Source: Escherichia phage JLBYU08 | Reading direction: 5' to 3' (one strand) | Sequence record: OK272482.1 | Length of the DNA stretch: 64,000 nt | Part shown: piece by piece, positions 3,471 to 37,726 of the stretch | How the letters are laid out: each line of letters begins with the position of its first letter | Numbering within the stretch: position 1 is the stretch's first letter | Notes under the pieces: generated by a model | Databases searched by the model: none | What the model saw: the letters and a program-made list of their open reading frames with translations, nothing else | What the model was told of the DNA's origin: nothing | Program-made: the position numbers and the translations under genes

Positions 3471-3496
3471 CAAAAGTGTTATTAATCTGATATTAT
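3467..3496 (+). promoter_or_regulatory. sigma70-like promoter (TTGACA-N18-TATTAT)
   Basis: Consensus -35 and -10 hexamers upstream of RBS AGGAG and ATG 3530. Confidence 0.55.
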
Positions 3497-3529
3497 CGGT
3501 CAGATATCTATAAACTAGGAGAACTAGAT

Positions 3530-3838: not shown

Positions 3839-4970
3839 AGAATATCCACTTATTGAGTCCATAGATTGTCTGGCTGATCTTCTTGAACCTGACGCTATAG
3901 TTTATTATGACTTCGATCAGGTTGCATATCAAGCTGCAGCAAGTTGTGAAAAAAGGACAATTGAGGTAACACACAAAGCCTCCGGACGTAAGAAGATGTT
4001 TAAAACACGAACAGAGTTCTGGGGGCGGCAGAAGAACACAGTTGGTGGTTGGTTAAAAGCTGAGAATACCAACCGTGAAGCTGCATGTAAAAAGGCTGGC
4101 AAGGAGTTTATTCCGTGGACACGAGAAGATTTCGATGTCTTGGATATCCAAACCCCTGATCCTGTAGAGAACTGCTTGCACACAATTAAGTGTAAAGCGA
4201 ATGCAGTCCTTAATTATCTCGGTATTCCGGAAGATCGGTGCGTGGGGGTACTTGGAGGCACAGGTAATTTCAGACTAGATCTTCCCATGCCGGAAAGATA
4301 TAAAGCCAACCGTAACAATACTCTTCGACCACTGCTGCTTGGAGATGCAAGACAGTATCTCCAAAAGCAGTATAATGCTCAAGTGATCAACGGTATCGAG
4401 GCTGACGACTGGTTAGCTATCCAGCAATTTGAAGGTTGGAACCACTACCAAAAAACAGGTAAGTTCAACAAGTTTATTATCTCTATTGATAAGGACCAAA
4501 GAACACTGCCGGGGCTTGTGTTCGATCCCATGCGAAACGATAAGGGAGATTTTGTAAGGGAAACCCCCATGCTGATCGATAACGGTATGGGGAACATCTT
4601 CATGAAGCCTAATGGAGAGGTTGGTGGTTACGGAATGCTGTTCTTCGGATACCAAATGCTGTGTGGTGACTCTGCCGACAATATCAAGCCGTATCAAGGA
4701 CTTATCGGTAAGGGTAAGTTCGGGGATGCCTCAGCATTCTACCTACTGTCTCAGTGCAGCACTCCAAAGGAGATGTGGGTGGCTATTATTGATCAGTACA
4801 AGAAGTGGTTCCCGAAAGGTGTTGTTAAGTATACTGACTTCAATGGTGTTGATCGTAGAATTTCCGTAGGTCAATGGATGAGTATAATTTTTGACTGTTT
4901 GTATATGAAGCGAACATTCAATGATCAAACAAAACTTGTTAACGTTCTTAGAAATGTTGGAGCAATTTGA
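3831..4970 (+). CDS. 5'-3' exonuclease / flap endonuclease (T7 gp6 / T5 D15-like)
   Basis: FEN-family acidic motifs GIEADDW, ISIDKD, CGDSADNIKP. Confidence 0.75.
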   Translation: MSREYPLIESIDCLADLLEPDAIVYYDFDQVAYQAAASCEKRTIEVTHKASGRKKMFKTRTEFWGRQKNTVGGWLKAENTNREAACKKAGKEFIPWTREDFDVLDIQTPDPVENCLHTIKCKANAVLNYLGIPEDRCVGVLGGTGNFRLDLPMPERYKANRNNTLRPLLLGDARQYLQKQYNAQVINGIEADDWLAIQQFEGWNHYQKTGKFNKFIISIDKDQRTLPGLVFDPMRNDKGDFVRETPMLIDNGMGNIFMKPNGEVGGYGMLFFGYQMLCGDSADNIKPYQGLIGKGKFGDASAFYLLSQCSTPKEMWVAIIDQYKKWFPKGVVKYTDFNGVDRRISVGQWMSIIFDCLYMKRTFNDQTKLVNVLRNVGAI

Positions 4971-32798: not shown

Positions 32799-33098
32799 AT
32801 GTCTACAAAGGCGGCTAAATACTCCTACATGCCATCAACCTCTGCAGAGGTAGACTTTAGTTTCGATGTGTTTCCACTGTTTGAGGTGGTTCTGGCATAC
32901 CCAACAATACTATCTACTCCCGAATCACTTGTGCCTGTTAAGTTGCAGAACGCTATGCATTCTATGCACTACAACAATAAATGTAGGCACAGATGGTGTC
33001 AGGACGGGGAAAAAGATCTGGATAGTTTGAGAGATTTTGACAGTCACCTTTTGACACCTTTCAGCTACTCCAACCTTGATAAGCCCTCGTGGGTATAG
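32799..33098 (+). CDS. hypothetical protein
   Basis: ATG 32799 in frame with track ORF. Confidence 0.4.
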   Translation: MSTKAAKYSYMPSTSAEVDFSFDVFPLFEVVLAYPTILSTPESLVPVKLQNAMHSMHYNNKCRHRWCQDGEKDLDSLRDFDSHLLTPFSYSNLDKPSWV

Positions 33099-33123
33099 CA
33101 AAATATCAAATTTAAGACACCTA

Positions 33124-33150
33124 GGACGCTCTGTGGCGTCCTTTTCTTTA
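33124..33150 (+). terminator. rho-independent terminator
   Basis: Hairpin GGACGC-TCTGTG-GCGTCC followed by TTTTCTTTA. Confidence 0.65.
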
Positions 33151-33311
33151 TCTAGTGCACGATTGCATACCTTGGACAGGTAATCTCATTACAGAGCGTT
33201 TAAGAGCTTTCTGCAAACAACTCCATATTTCGAGCGTAGCGAGAACGCACGTCCGTTTTGACCCAAATCACCATACGCTCGGATTTTAACCAAACCCTCG
33301 CGGCGTTTCTG

Positions 33312-33340
33312 TTGACACATTACCGCCCTCGTGATATTAT
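33312..33340 (+). promoter_or_regulatory. sigma70-like promoter (TTGACA-N17-TATTAT)
   Basis: Consensus hexamers. Confidence 0.55.
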
Positions 33341-33458
33341 CCACACATCGTTTAGAGAATATAGGATACACAATGAGAACATTGTCCGAAGTTTTAGTGG
33401 TGATCCTGATGATCATTACGTCCATAGCGGCTGTTGCCGGAATACTCACGGGTGGAAC

Positions 33459-33671
33459 ATGATCAACACACCTGTATCTGAAGAGACATTCAAAGAAGTG
33501 ACCATATGTCCCTTGGCTGAGCCAGGGAAAGAGGAAAACTTCGATTCTGAAGATTCTCCATCTTCGCTACAGGTAGATCCTGAGGCTGATGACCTGACGT
33601 GGGAGGACATCGTAGATATCTGGTTCTCTATTATGCCTGAGCACGAAGAGTTCAGGGGTGGTAGACTATGA
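33459..33671 (+). CDS. hypothetical acidic protein
   Basis: ATG 33459 downstream of promoter; track ORF start lies upstream of promoter. Confidence 0.4.
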   Translation: MINTPVSEETFKEVTICPLAEPGKEENFDSEDSPSSLQVDPEADDLTWEDIVDIWFSIMPEHEEFRGGRL

Positions 33672-33791
33672 AGCACCGAGCACACACAGGTTCCTCATGC
33701 TAAAGCATGGCCTGAAGAGGCAAACGTGCATAATTCCTGTGCATTGTGACGTATAAAACCCGTCCACACTCTCATTTTCAGAGGAGATTTC

Positions 33792-34007
33792 ATGAAGATA
33801 GAAATATTTGGTGGAGCTGACAACACTCGTGGCCTGATTTACCTTGAATTCGATGAATCATACCTGCCAGAGGTGTTAAATATAGACTCTGTTGCGGAGG
33901 CTTTGGGAGTAAACCCTAAAGAACTCCACTCTTGTGCTGAGATCGATGGTTGGGAAGAGACCATGAACATTGATTTCAGTGAAGTAGAGGATGAACCGCT
34001 GGACTGA
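33792..34007 (+). CDS. small acidic protein, MKIEI paralog family; last gene of plus-strand arm
   Basis: RBS AGAGGAGA; MKIEIFGGAD... Confidence 0.5.
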   Translation: MKIEIFGGADNTRGLIYLEFDESYLPEVLNIDSVAEALGVNPKELHSCAEIDGWEETMNIDFSEVEDEPLD

Positions 34008-35536
34008 CACACAATTAGCTGCCCGGCTAAAGTGCTGGAAGCACCTATAACACATCTTTCAACTAAATTTCCTACAACCACAATCACTTACCTCCCACAC
34101 ATGACTGTTTGCTTGTTTAGTGAGCAGTCATGCCTTGACATTCTTGCCTATCCTGATAAAATTAAGTTCTTCTCTTTTCTTTTACCGAGTAATTCGGGTT
34201 TTCTGTTCTCTTCGGTTTGAAGGGGTATGGAGATACACCTGAGTGAACAGGGTGAACAACCGAACATTTGGCTATGGCATTAGCATGGCGAAGCGGACGG
34301 GTGACGAAAGAGGGGCCGGAGGACACCAGTCACTGCCATATGATATATGGGTGATAACCTGAAGAGTCTGAATAAGTGTTTAAGTACCAGTCAGAGGAAA
34401 AGGTGAATGGTAGCCGAAGGGGGAGGGGGGGTTTCTTGTATCTTTAATTTGTATATTATGTATACACTTGTAAACCAATCTCATTTGAATTTGTTTACCA
34501 CACAAAGGGGATAGAGACAAATATTATCTATTAAACTTGAATTATTTATAGAAAATACCACAACACCACTTAAGTCTTTGATTTTACACACAAATCCTAC
34601 AGATATTCACCCTCCATATTTAACATACCTGTAACATATTCCATACCCTACCTGTCTGATCAATTCACCCAACCACACCCTCCATATTTTCCCTGTCTGT
34701 ACCACCCCTGCCCCGCCGGGAGTCCCGTCATATCTGGCTTTCCAGCAAATATCACACCCACAAATATCATTGCCTGAAGAGGGTTTCATCCCATAATACC
34801 TGCCTTACCTGAAGAGCGCTTCATATACCCCGTAAATTTTTTTAATTGACCTCCTCCCCGCCGCCGGAGGGGTCGGCTTTTCCCACACAGGCCTGAAGAG
34901 TCAGCCAGAAATATTTGAACAGGTCCAGTTATACCACGATTTTGACCTGACCGACAGGGAGGCCCGAAGGGTCTAGCTTTCAGCTAGAGTCCTTGCAGGA
35001 CCTACAGGAGCGCTGCCAGGCGGACGAAATGGGAATACTTCTCATTCTTATAACAATTCTCAAATATCAAGGCAGTGAGGCAAATTAATAGGTGAGGCCG
35101 TTCACATAGTGGCACAACATTTGCAATCTATTTTGTGTGGGGGAATGAGAATACATATCATTGTGAGAACCATTATCATTACGGGCAATTTAACATAATA
35201 CCCATTATACGCACCACTGACGATACATACAGGGATTGATAACATGGGTTACTGTTTACGCATATAACAATTATATTTCTTACTATTTGTGTGGGATATA
35301 GTTAGCAGCCGATAGATTAGATATTGACCTGCGGACTTCTGACCGTCTAGACGTCTAAACGCCCACACAACAAGGCTTATACATACATCGCTGAATGTAA
35401 ACAGGGCCGCAAAAATGCTACCATACCAGATTGTAAATTTTTCATGCAGCACTTGACAAAGAGGAGAAAAACTTGTCTGACACAATATGACATACTGGGC
35501 ACATTAAACACACTTTAGACTTAATTGACATGCCTG

Positions 35537-35660
35537 ACTGTTTACGCTGTCACTATTCACGCTATTACTATTCACTCCCTTTACTGTTCACGCTCTTACT
35601 GTTTACATGCTTAATGGTTTACATGCTTAATATACTGCATGTCTAATAGTTTACATAGCT
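35537..35660. repeat. iteron-like array, about 7 tandem copies of CT(G/A)TT(T/C)AC(R) with alternating 14/16-bp spacing
   Basis: ctgtttacgct / ctattcacgct / ctattcactcc / ctgttcacgct / ctgtttacatgcttaat / tggtttacatgcttaat / tagtttacatagc read directly. Confidence 0.6.
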
Positions 35661-36509
35661 AACTATTTATACAGATATGATAAGCCATGCCATTCGTTTG
35701 CATGTTAATAATTTATGACATAATATAAAAGCAGGGCAACTATTAGCAGATCTATAGTTGCCTTGCTTGTCATGTCATGATTAACTAAATACAAGGCAAC
35801 TATGATCTGATTAATAGTTTGCAGACAAACTATCACGGGGGTGATGGTTACTGCTTTTATATTATGTCGCGACTCCGTCGCGCCATGCCATTCGTTTGCA
35901 TAGTTGCCTTATTGTTACAGATAAAATAATTGTATTGTTAATTATTTCTTATCTTTCTCTTAGTCATCTAATGATTCCAGTTAGTATAGTAATGTACAGT
36001 AAACATTAGACGACTAAAGATTTATATGCTTATAATAACTTACAGTGACAATTTCGGACTGTTTACGAAAAATGTTGACACCTGAGCCGATTTATGTTAT
36101 GCAGTTTACACGAATAATTATTTTATGCAGGTATTGACTATTCCGTTATTCCATGGTTGGAATAAATACTTAGCAGTCTATAGAATGGTGACGCTACGTG
36201 AATTCTGGAATTTAGTGGCTATAGTTATACTCGATTTTTCACGTAGAACACGCTTTTGTTAGTGTGTAAGTGTATGACTTATAAAGATTTTTAGTTGTTG
36301 ACAAGATACTGAAGATATGCATCAGGTTAAATTTTGTGCAATAGCGGCATTACGTGCAATTTTGGGAGAGAAAACGGGCAAAAATGGCCTTGCTACCACA
36401 CAATGAAAAATTATGCAATAGTTATTTTCCATGTATATTTGTACAGTGTGTGGGATTAATGGCTAGTCAATTATTCCACTTGCCAGGTAGGGCCGTTTAT
36501 GGTAGGAGA

Positions 36510-36542
36510 AGAGCAGACAAAAAGAAAGGGGCCTAAGCCCCT
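36510..36542 (-). terminator. rho-independent terminator ending the minus-strand arm
   Basis: Hairpin AGGGGC-CTAA-GCCCCT; on minus strand followed by TTTCTTTTTGT. Confidence 0.65.
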
Positions 36543-36561
36543 TGATAATTCAGTTAAAAAA

Positions 36562-36981
36562 TTATAATGATTCGTATATTTCAAAAATCCGATTTGCCAG
36601 GTCGTTACGGTAGCGGAATTTTTCCTCACGTTTGATCATAAGATCTTTATAGCCGTACTCTTTAAGCACTTCATTAACTTTATGGCGGCATACTTTCATA
36701 TTATCCTGCGCGTCACCAATAAATCTGTTGCTATGGTGCATGGCTTTAATTTCTTCTTCCAGGACCAGGGCAACTATGCGGACCGGATCAAGCTGATAGG
36801 CGGTAACATCCATGCGGCATTGTAGACGGCTTTTAACGTCCGCCACCGGATATACTGCAACCTCTTCCCCGTCAACATTGACAATAATTAGTTTACCATC
36901 GATTTCGAATCCTTTCGCCGCCGGACCGTGACAAAAAGCGTTATCAAAGCTATATGCCGGATTATCAGATTTAATGTTCAT
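36562..36981 (-). CDS. hypothetical protein
   Basis: 139-aa ORF with RBS GAGAGG; promoter at 37033-37061. Confidence 0.5.
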   Translation of the reverse strand: MNIKSDNPAYSFDNAFCHGPAAKGFEIDGKLIIVNVDGEEVAVYPVADVKSRLQCRMDVTAYQLDPVRIVALVLEEEIKAMHHSNRFIGDAQDNMKVCRHKVNEVLKEYGYKDLMIKREEKFRYRNDLANRIFEIYESL

Positions 36982-37032
36982 GGTGTTTTTTTACCTCTCA
37001 GTTAATTTTCTTACAACTTCCCTTCAAAAAAG

Positions 37033-37061
37033 AATATAGCAAAACTGCCGATCCCTGTCAA
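37033..37061 (-). promoter_or_regulatory. sigma70-like promoter (TTGACA-N17-TATATT)
   Basis: Read on minus strand: TTGACAgggatcggcagttttgcTATATT. Confidence 0.5.
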
Positions 37062-37127
37062 CCAAGGATAGCATAATTTTTATGTGATCAAGGGGCTTTA
37101 TTGCCCCTGACCATGTAACTTGTTGTA

Positions 37128-37391
37128 TTATTTGTTGCTCATCCAGTTTTCCCAAGCTGCCTGATAATCTGCCTCACTACGGCGGATCTCTTCTTGTTCT
37201 TCAAGTCGGATCTCTTCTTCCAGGTACCCCAAGATGTCAGCCTTTTTGGTCTGGCGTAGCATCCAGTCATCTTTTTTGCGGGTAAAGATCTTATAAGCTT
37301 TCTCGCAAACCTCTTTTTTGCTACCTTTCTGGACTTCCAGAACACGATAAGCCATATATTGAACTAGTTTGAGCTGGTCAAGACGTTTCAT
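37128..37391 (-). CDS. hypothetical protein
   Basis: 87-aa ORF. Confidence 0.45.
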   Translation of the reverse strand: MKRLDQLKLVQYMAYRVLEVQKGSKKEVCEKAYKIFTRKKDDWMLRQTKKADILGYLEEEIRLEEQEEIRRSEADYQAAWENWMSNK

Positions 37392-37453
37392 GATGTTTTT
37401 CCTCTTTATGTGGTTTTTGTTTAGTGGGCCTTTTGGCCCGTGTCATTATCTTA

Positions 37454-37726
37454 TTACTTACGGCGGCAGAATTCAAGCGTTTTTAATTGATAATCTTCCT
37501 CAGCCTGGAGTACAACCGCCTCGATCATTTCGTTGGCATTGTTGAAGCCATACCCTTTAGCGAACTCATCCGCACCACCTTCGTGATCATGTTCTGCGTT
37601 CATCGCTTCCACGAAATGGAATTCAAGATTATTGAGATAAGGGCTTGATGTTCCGTCCTCTTTTTCGATGAGATCCCAAATAGCATTAAAACGTGATTCG
37701 ACTTCTTGATTAATCCAGCTTGACAT
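37454..37726 (-). CDS. hypothetical acidic protein
   Basis: 90-aa ORF. Confidence 0.45.
   Translation of the reverse strand: MSSWINQEVESRFNAIWDLIEKEDGTSSPYLNNLEFHFVEAMNAEHDHEGGADEFAKGYGFNNANEMIEAVVLQAEEDYQLKTLEFCRRK

Follow-up and report, generated by a model that had tools for sequence, protein, structure and literature searches.

What is the long, repeat-rich stretch that separates the two convergent gene arms of Escherichia phage JLBYU08? The window analyzed here is 64,000 nucleotides of this phage (sequence record OK272482.1), and the stretch in question occupies positions 34010–36560. An earlier note on the window had regarded it as a candidate replication origin, packaging site, genome terminus or structured noncoding RNA (ncRNA) locus. 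Comparison with relatives indicates that the interval is very probably a Vequintavirus concatemer junction, the site at which packaging releases unit genomes. The identification follows from positions 35019–35477, which correspond to a direct terminal repeat (DTR) and thereby make the gap a concatemer junction.

By megablast the interval matched 121 phage records, all of them Vequintavirus (rV5-like E. coli myoviruses), at 90–96% identity, and when the whole interval was aligned with blastn the identity to Vequintavirus records was 86–93%. Judged by these matches, the source DNA is that of a Vequintavirus, an rV5-like myophage. The counterpart in rV5 is 104016–106617, between open reading frame (ORF) 163 and ORF 164, and is ~89–92% identical. 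In the rV5 paper, the gap between genes 163 and 164 is shown as a grey "non-coding" box with no ORFs; the authors expected bidirectional terminators between these genes and found none, and they ascribed a change in GC and AT skew at 104425–105475 to the change in transcription direction (PMC3606486).

The repeat lies in the middle of the gap:

35019–35477, no strand assigned: homologue of a 459-bp DTR, starting with GGCGGACG, ending with AAAAACTTGTC and aligning to the repeat of phage Gotham.

Gotham has an annotated repeat_region at both 1–459 and 136567–137025, and both copies align end to end with 35019–35477. The first 459 nt of the EdH4 record are the same as its last 459 nt, with ends that map to 35019 (GGCGGACG) and 35477 (AAAAACTTGTC), and the unit-length record of bov11CS3 runs from 35019 round to 35018. 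Three independent GenBank records (Gotham, EdH4 and bov11CS3) therefore share ends at exact nucleotides, which bears out the terminus or packaging option of the earlier note. The same two points appear as alignment breaks. Matches to Gotham, EdH4, ECP2309 and EcoIv14a_Aya are all interrupted at query position 1468 (35477 in the window), and those to bov11CS3 and bov25_3 start at query position 1010. Read-based analyses give terminal repeats of 458–459 bp for the Vequintavirus phages Gotham (459 bp), EdH4 and HdK5 (458 bp) (PMC7471380, PMC6563267), and the Gotham authors describe it as explicitly unlike their permuted phages (PMC7471380). The window holds the DTR in its single-copy, joined form, and the same sequence is seen at both record ends in close relatives.

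Conservation of the repeat was assessed in a region alignment of 22 genomes, including the window, 18 GenBank vequintaviruses, Gotham and one IMG/VR contig. The DTR has virtually no indels and a mean pairwise identity of 93.8%, and its boundary sequences are invariant in all 22 genomes. Placing the ends by homology to the read-based determinations in relatives, we infer that the virion DNA of JLBYU08 starts at 35019 and ends at 35477. It is already known that rV5-like phages have a noncoding gap with a 459-bp DTR, and the ends have been mapped in relatives. In the literature, we found no account of where the ends lie with respect to the gene arms, of boundary motifs shared across genera, of hypervariable arrays next to the cuts, of an inverted repeat with covarying arms or of the promoter-plus-RNA-like block described below.

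Both boundaries have counterparts outside the genus. Klebsiella phage KPP-1 (Mydovirus, Vequintavirinae) has a 514-bp DTR at 116316–116829, supported by twofold coverage and PhageTerm and reported as T7-like (PMC9862379). Its plus arm ends at 115981 and its minus arm resumes at 117757, so the DTR again lies inside a ~1.8-kb gap between convergent arms. With the cut marked by a slash, the left boundary is CTGCCA/GGCGGACG in the window and GTGCTA/GACGGACA in KPP-1, and the right boundary is CTTGACAAAGAGGAGAAAAACTTGTC/T and CTTGACAAGGAGAGAGAATTGTGT/T, respectively. A further comparison is offered by an uncultured sister clade, clade B, which consists of IMG/VR contigs of 121–141 kb and several metagenome contigs; the metagenome pattern matches numbered 51, mostly chance, and nhmmer kept 11. 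The clade B noncoding region is collinear with the window and much diverged, and its boundaries GGTATTA/GGCAGGCG and TTGACAAAAAGAGCGTAATTTGTT/ predict a DTR of ~670 bp. Across genera the left boundary motif is YYA/GRCRGRC, and the right is TTGACAA, a purine-rich spacer and TTGTY/. The right motif takes the following form in the window:

35454–35477, no strand assigned: right-boundary motif TTGACAAAGAGGAGAAAAACTTGTC with ACAA...TTGT half-sites, invariant in the 22 genomes; candidate right-end cleavage signal.

Its counterparts are TTGACAAGGAGAGAGAATTGTGT at the reported DTR end of KPP-1 and TTGACAAAAAGAGCGTAATTTGTT in clade B. The resemblance to KPP-1 extends to the surroundings of the cuts. 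A AAATATCA box lies 43 nt inside the left cut in the window and 44 nt inside it in KPP-1 (42–44 nt when KPP-1 and clade B are considered together), and KPP-1 has a pair of these boxes just outside. Both phages have AATGAGAAT-type palindromes, and the block ATTTAACATAA...TTATACGCAC inside the window DTR has a similar counterpart in the KPP-1 DTR. Beyond the right cut, each has a perfect inverted repeat, of 18 nt starting 240 nt out in the window and of 21 nt starting 311 nt out in KPP-1. KPP-1 differs in lacking the 34110–34431 block and the GACAY and GTTYAC arrays, and there is no overall BLAST alignment between the two. A promoter scan also picked up a leftward promoter-like site on the minus strand, from 35459 to 35430 (TTGTCA, 18-nt spacer, TACAAT), which overlaps the right-boundary motif; the corresponding KPP-1 sequence (~3484–3516 of the examined locus) reads TTGTCA, 18-nt spacer, TACAAA. 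The copy of this site at the right end of the virion DNA would direct transcription inward, in the antisense direction with respect to the plus arm.

The gap is delimited by two small genes and a hairpin. The plus arm ends at 34007 and the minus arm closes at a terminator-like hairpin, both as first proposed, with the hairpin placed as listed here:

33792–34007, plus strand: last plus-arm gene, 71 amino acids (aa), hypothetical; an annotated coding sequence (CDS) in Murica, rV5 (ORF 163) and others.
36526–36543, minus strand: terminator-like hairpin closing the minus arm, AAGGGGCTTAGGCCCCTT then TCTTTTTGTC; an annotated terminator in Murica and Alma.
36562–36981, minus strand: last minus-arm gene, 139 aa, hypothetical; annotated as rV5 ORF 164.

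ORF 33792–34007 behaves as a gene, with variable sites distributed 9/6/38 over the three codon positions and an intact frame in 21 of the 22 genomes. Inside 34010–36560, none of 25 ORFs (30–78 aa) showed a third-position excess, and most are broken in most of the 22 genomes; ORF 34607–34789 is intact in four and ORF 35249–35485 in six. The flat codon-position pattern and the frequent interruptions indicate that the gap is truly noncoding, in agreement with the claim that it holds no convincing ORF, and that the 2–16 "hypothetical proteins" annotated there are spurious. Pfam returned no match for the flanking small proteins, including the 139-aa protein, or for the 60-aa gap ORF. ARAGORN found no tRNA or tmRNA genes in the whole window, and an Rfam 15 cmscan over 33000–37500 gave no matches at E≤1.

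The region around the DTR is made up of distinct elements:

34432–34600, no strand assigned: AT-rich, less conserved spacer between G-rich and C-rich blocks.
34747–34769, plus strand: two AAATATCA boxes 15 nt apart; the third copy is at 35062–35069 in the DTR.
34773–34900, plus strand: three CCTGAAGAG boxes, at 34773, 34808 and 34892.
34853–34872, plus strand: GC-rich imperfect palindrome CCTCCCCGCCGCCGGAGGGG followed by TTTT; possible plus-strand terminator with a stem that varies between genomes.
34910–35018, no strand assigned: hypervariable left junction with ACAGGAGYGCTGCC repeats, ending in invariant GCTGCCA before the cut.
35478–35536, plus strand: array 1, TGACAYAAT-type units of ~10–11 nt, starting at the first base past the right cut; copy number varies.
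35537–35672, plus strand: array 2, "iterons", ACTRTTYAC plus 6–7 nt, period 15–16 (Tandem Repeats Finder, 35537–35656).
35684–35901, no strand assigned: element bounded by exact 20-nt direct repeats (35684–35703 and 35882–35901), with four GGCAACTAT sites inside.
35902–36509, no strand assigned: indel-free AT-rich noncoding block of 608 nt, 90.9% identity, gaps in 1% of columns, no conserved ORF.

The two most variable zones abut exactly the two invariant DTR boundaries. The left junction, 34910–35018, has 86% identity and gaps in 79% of alignment columns, and the right-junction arrays, 35478–35683, have 66% identity and gaps in 95% of columns; in the arrays the cores are kept, while the number and sequence of the units differ. 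Identity is 90.1% in the spacer 34432–34600 and 93.2%, as a pairwise mean, in the box region 34601–34909. Near the palindrome, some genomes have stem variants and some a 68-nt insertion. A 50-nt cassette of three hairpins occupies 34960–35009 in JLBYU08, and such cassettes are present or absent among genomes. Hairpin cassettes of 33–50 nt also occur in the inverted-repeat loop (rV5 and the loci L011, L020 and L022) and, in SYGMH1, after the first direct-repeat copy. One cassette, AACAYCCTYGAGACGARGGCTATGC...GAGTTTA, sits at differing positions between genomes, as if mobile or copied by template switching.

Several short words are concentrated in the region. CCTGAAGAG is found seven times in the window, always on the plus strand, against 0.48 expected. 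Two copies (9976 and 17476) are outside the terminal region. The repeat was thus correctly noticed at the start, but its count of three was too low, as the interval holds four copies (34358, 34773, 34808 and 34892) and a further one lies at 33711. The copy at 34892 (CCCACACAGRCCTGAAGAGTCAGCC) is kept throughout the 22 genomes as well as in clade B, and a related box, GACCTGAAGTGTCAGCC, occurs in KPP-1. CAAATATCA occurs three times in the region and once elsewhere in the window, CCCACACA 10 times against 2.0 expected (six within 34094–36454), GGCAACTAT six times against 0.55 expected, and ACTGTTTAC four times in the gap and nowhere else in the window. The GC-rich palindrome at 34853–34872, the tandem array of period 15–16 and the AT-rich stretches that had been reported are all present, the last with a GC content of 28% at 34500–34599 and 25–31% at 35900–36099; it is 30–32% at 35600–35799.

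On the right, array 1 holds its position and changes its sequence. Clade B has an array of different units (AGGCATAC, three times) that starts at its predicted right cut, the same place as array 1. Conservation of position across clades with replacement of the unit sequence is as expected if the sites evolve together with a protein that binds them, for instance the small terminase subunit. The array 2 core, GTT[TC]AC, is present in 0–7 copies in the 22 genomes, with none in V18 and one each in RudolfGeigy and LL12. TTGACA hexamers in 35450–36310 were considered as −35 boxes, but they have no acceptable −10 and are better read as cores of the TGACA repeats.

The element at 35684–35901 (92.5% mean pairwise identity, with large insertions in some genomes) holds a perfect 18-nt inverted repeat, 35717–35734 and 35851–35868, whose arms are invariant in 21 clade A genomes. 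Clade B has a perfect 17-nt inverted repeat at the equivalent place. In clade B and KPP-1 the outer GACAYAATA of the inverted repeats is kept and the inner part differs, with the arms still perfectly complementary. Complementarity maintained through differing sequence in three lineages indicates real compensatory evolution and points to a stem, whether in RNA, single-stranded DNA or a cruciform. FV3 (NC_019517) has one copy of the 20-nt direct repeat, GCCATG(A/C)CATTCGTTTGCAT, and lacks all of the intervening DNA, inverted repeat and GGCAACTAT sites included, a state that may be either a deletion mediated by the direct repeats or an empty insertion site. Further right, an island at ~36190–36305, which includes the string TTATAAAGATTTTTAGTTGTTGACA, is conserved with clade B (72% over 119 nt), and its hairpin CTACGTGAA...TTCACGTAG (36197–36249) is replaced there by TGAAAAA...TTTTTCA.

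The most conserved part of the gap lies at its other end and has the layout of a transcription unit:

34135–34162, plus strand: sigma-70 promoter-like site, TTGACA, 16-nt spacer and TG-a-TAAAAT (extended −10), pointing toward the DTR.
34166–34431, plus strand: candidate ~265-nt structured ncRNA or replication RNA primer, recognized by conservation, with inferred ends.
34419–34431, plus strand: G5-A-G7 tract closing the block, which pairs with a CU-rich 5′ leader in the consensus fold.

Mean pairwise identity over 34110–34431 is 98.7% (minimum 95%), compared with 94.6% for the adjacent gene at 33792–34007. The promoter-like site scored 11/12 plus TG in the promoter scan and is 99–100% conserved in the 22 genomes. 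The corresponding site in clade B reads TTGCAA, 17-nt spacer, TG-c-TATAAT; the promoter is thus retained although its letters differ. The 265 nt downstream are 95–99.7% identical in 118 phage records, and it is here that clades A and B match best. Reading frames of the block shift from one clade to the other, and the closing tract is G5AG5-7 in clade A and G5-6 TA G5 in clade B.

RNAalifold, applied to 13 non-identical sequences, predicted 42 pairs, 8 of them changed on both sides; the structure was predicted from the same alignment, which covers two clades only. In the consensus fold the G tract pairs with the CU-rich 5′ leader to form a closing helix, and a long-range pairing joins UAUGGCA to UGCCAUA (UAUCGCA/UGCGAUG in clade B). 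In this fold 99.5% of cells are paired, compared with 52–59% when the 3′ partners are slid by 1–3 columns, and the slid versions have 0–3 pairs with double changes. The consensus energy is −31.8 kcal/mol on the plus strand (42 pairs) and −13.1 kcal/mol on the minus strand (24 pairs), an advantage that fits the many G-U pairs and the promoter direction. Together, the conserved sigma-70 promoter and the strand-specific consensus fold make the block a candidate for a ~265-nt ncRNA or an RNA-primed origin. We give roughly even odds that the block is either an RNA gene or the source of a transcript that acts in cis at the junction. A search of E. coli genomes by blastn found no homologue of the block, which by this measure does not mimic a host RNA, and a second IMG/VR pattern scan found no third clade with the block. 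The more specific proposal, that 34135–34431 encodes an undescribed ~265-nt RNA of Vequintavirus and its sister clade, which aids replication priming or junction processing through the closing helix or an R-loop, is tentative and at present the less likely outcome. Were it true, end formation in a large myovirus would involve an RNA.

How firmly does the concatemer junction stand against other readings of the gap? Several points weigh against it or against parts of it. The ends of JLBYU08 are placed by homology with those of relatives. The inverted-repeat element is absent from FV3, a viable phage, and is thus dispensable. As for the block, its single-sequence fold has a z-score of only −1.4 on the plus and −0.3 on the minus strand (34165–34445), values that are uninformative alone; every compensatory change comes from one split between two clades; and the fold was counted on the sequences from which it was predicted. 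In the literature, the rV5 genome was called circularly permuted, based on 3.6x Sanger coverage, which is weaker data (PMC3606486), and a 2026 paper reported a PhageTerm "headful" result for the Vequintavirus BpE1AUH, also weaker data as it came from a cocktail assembly. These two reports are what speaks for a circularly permuted genome packaged by headful, in which the gap would be a transcription-termination zone with junk repeats and the record ends mere assembly conventions. We consider this very improbable, as records from three groups agree to the nucleotide, two of them carry exact 459-nt duplications at both ends, the Gotham authors separate Gotham from permuted phages, KPP-1 has twofold coverage over its repeat, and the boundary motifs are conserved across genera. 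Still more remote is the view that annotation pipelines have overlooked a group of tiny protein-coding genes in the gap. Some GenBank records do call hypothetical proteins in it (MiataMamis, NHEP1 and PMBT16 annotate 13–16 CDS), and the 60-aa minus-strand ORF 34607–34789 is annotated in Murica and SophiaRose. The gap ORFs are nevertheless flat by codon position and mostly interrupted, in contrast to the 9/6/38 of the control gene, those in the conserved block shift frame between clades, and the 60-aa ORF has no Pfam match. The translated small-ORF cluster that the earlier note named as its possible refutation is rejected by this test of codon position and intactness.

Two further readings give the interval an RNA or a replication function. 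The gap could be mainly an ncRNA locus, with 34135–34431 and a second RNA at the 18-nt inverted repeat or the 36190–36305 island, and with the DTR merely lying between them. The promoter, the 98.7% identity and the strand-specific fold of the block would fit, as would the long-range inverted repeats that stay perfect through different sequences in three lineages, the hairpin at 36197–36249 that is kept with shifted sequence and the 608-nt indel-free noncoding block. However, perfect Watson–Crick inverted repeats fit DNA cruciforms or protein sites equally well, FV3 does without the inverted-repeat element, there is no Rfam family at E≤1, and this reading gives no reason why records end exactly at 35019 and 35477. 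The literature on the group yielded no transcriptome or expression data for any Vequintavirus. We regard this reading as improbable for the gap as a whole; of the original ncRNA option, the sub-block 34135–34431 is a plausible remainder and the rest of the interval is not. Somewhat less improbable, though still unlikely, is that the interval or a part of it is a replication origin, either with the arrays as iterons beside AT-rich DNA or with R-loop priming at 34432–34600, and such an origin may coexist with a terminus. T7 and T4 origins consist of a promoter plus AT-rich or unwinding elements, and the gap offers a strong conserved promoter, a G-skewed 265 nt ending in G5AG7 and then DNA of 28–37% GC. 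The arrays, with their conserved cores GACAY and GTTYAC, adjoin AT-rich DNA. On the other side, the arrays are the least conserved DNA of the region, their core varies between 0 and 7 copies and can be absent, and a period of 15–16 nt does not phase the sites on one face of the helix. An AT-rich region does lie beside the repeats, as in iteron origins, but the array is not conserved among relatives and no initiator gene is adjacent (no conserved gap ORF, and flanking small proteins that lack Pfam matches). Cumulative GC skew peaks at ~34000, so the turn that the earlier note wanted checked exists, but it falls where the direction of transcription changes, a point also made by the rV5 authors (PMC3606486), and cannot separate an origin or terminus from that switch. 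A scan for DnaA boxes (TTWTNCACA, ≤1 mismatch) found 189 in the window against 164 expected and no cluster in the gap, so such sites are not enriched in JLBYU08. In clade B, IMG/VR contig 3300045988_159287 (reverse strand, ~4531–4575) has a group of three directly oriented consensus DnaA boxes, TTATCCACA, that spans no more than 45 nt of the predicted DTR; these are the strongest hint that replication proteins may act at the junction in some relatives. rV5 encodes a T7-like PolA and a gp4-type primase-helicase (PMC3606486), and the literature search found nothing relevant on a replication origin in this phage group.

On the concatemer-junction reading, and by analogy with T7-type packaging, replication would generate concatemers with one DTR per junction. 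A sequence-specific terminase of the T7 type would recognize the junction and cut at 35018/35019 and 35477/35478, and the DTR would be duplicated by strand-displacement or fill-in synthesis to leave a copy at both ends of the virion DNA. The flanks, 1.0 kb on the left and 1.1 kb on the right, would then form the subterminal DNA of the right and the left genome end, respectively, noncoding because both gene arms run toward the ends and stop there. The elements of these flanks (AAATATCA and CCTGAAGAG boxes, arrays and inverted repeat) may be binding or structural sites for end recognition, repeat duplication or end protection. Among them the best candidates for recognition sites are AAATATCA, at a fixed distance from the left cut, CCTGAAGAG, and array 1 at the right cut. 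Packaging in T7 and T3 needs transcription into the junction. Here both arms are transcribed toward it, and the conserved promoter may add a dedicated transcript aimed at it. In the unit 34135–34431 the conserved host-type promoter would drive a highly constrained ~265-nt transcript toward the end, most likely either a structured ncRNA or an RNA that activates or primes processes at the junction.

Many Vequintavirus records are opened at arbitrary positions, some with up to 16 spurious gap proteins, and the ends at 35019 and 35477 allow consistent annotation and orientation. For phages that are therapeutic candidates, the identity of the junction guides which DNA to keep when genomes are rebooted or modified. 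The recognition and duplication of ends in large myoviruses with short repeats are poorly understood outside T7, and the boundary motifs, the arrays adjoining the cuts and the 98.7%-identical block provide handles on them. The new anatomical leads correct annotation and serve packaging specialists; they amount to no surprising mechanism yet.

Some observations concern the neighborhood of the junction and the records used. The 139-aa gene (36562–36981) is missing in Alma, nomo, FV3 and SYGMH1, in which the first gene is one of 264 bp. With the 139-aa protein as query, only three IMG/VR loci were found, and in two of these contigs the DNA beside the gene is unrelated or very diverged, which suggests that the gene is mobile or exchangeable. 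Part of the gap in a sister-clade contig (L004:6418–9918, query 767–864) matches HNH homing endonuclease genes of unrelated Salmonella, Escherichia and Pectobacterium phages, suggesting a homing-endonuclease insertion. About 19 records titled "UNVERIFIED Campylobacter phage" (GenBank MG0656xx, e.g. MG065644) are ordinary E. coli-type vequintaviruses by sequence, and their host labels are probably wrong.

Among described systems, the closest are the relatives themselves. The repeats of Gotham, EdH4 and HdK5 are the same element as 35019–35477, which aligns with the annotated repeat position by position and shares its boundary sequences exactly. The reports on these phages give the length only, with no arm position, motifs, arrays or block, and the JLBYU08 ends come from homology to them (PMC7471380, PMC6563267). 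The "non-coding" box of rV5 is the same locus, likewise ORF-free, between convergent units and at a skew change, although that paper treated the genome as permuted and gave the gap no function (PMC3606486).

Array 2 resembles the iteron origins (lambda ori, P4 ori/crr and plasmid iterons) in having tandem repeats with a conserved core beside AT-rich DNA, and its GTTCAC core recalls the P4 type I repeat TGTTCACC. It is unlike them in its 15–16-nt period, a copy number that falls to zero, the lack of an adjacent initiator gene and the fact that the arrays begin at a terminase cut. The conserved block resembles transcription-primed origins (T4 oriF/oriG, T7 primary, ColE1 RNA II and mitochondrial CSBII) in its promoter, G-rich transcript and AT-rich DNA. 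Its G5AG7 tract resembles in form human mitochondrial CSBII, where a hybrid G-quadruplex ends primer transcripts. In the predicted consensus fold the G tract instead pairs with the 5′ leader, as in a stand-alone RNA.

The T7 concatemer junction, with its 160-bp direct terminal repeat, is a further parallel. Like the window, it has a short exact repeat, fixed cuts, one repeat per concatemer junction and a noncoding surround of ~1–1.5 kb, which likewise contains promoters and short repeat arrays. In T7 and T3, transcription toward the junction and a nearby hairpin have been implicated in processing. The two share no sequence similarity, and JLBYU08 represents a ~137-kb myovirus type with host-type promoters. 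The gene arms of JLBYU08 converge on the junction, whereas those of T7 start from it, and the repeat arrays lie outside the terminal repeat in JLBYU08 and inside it in T7.

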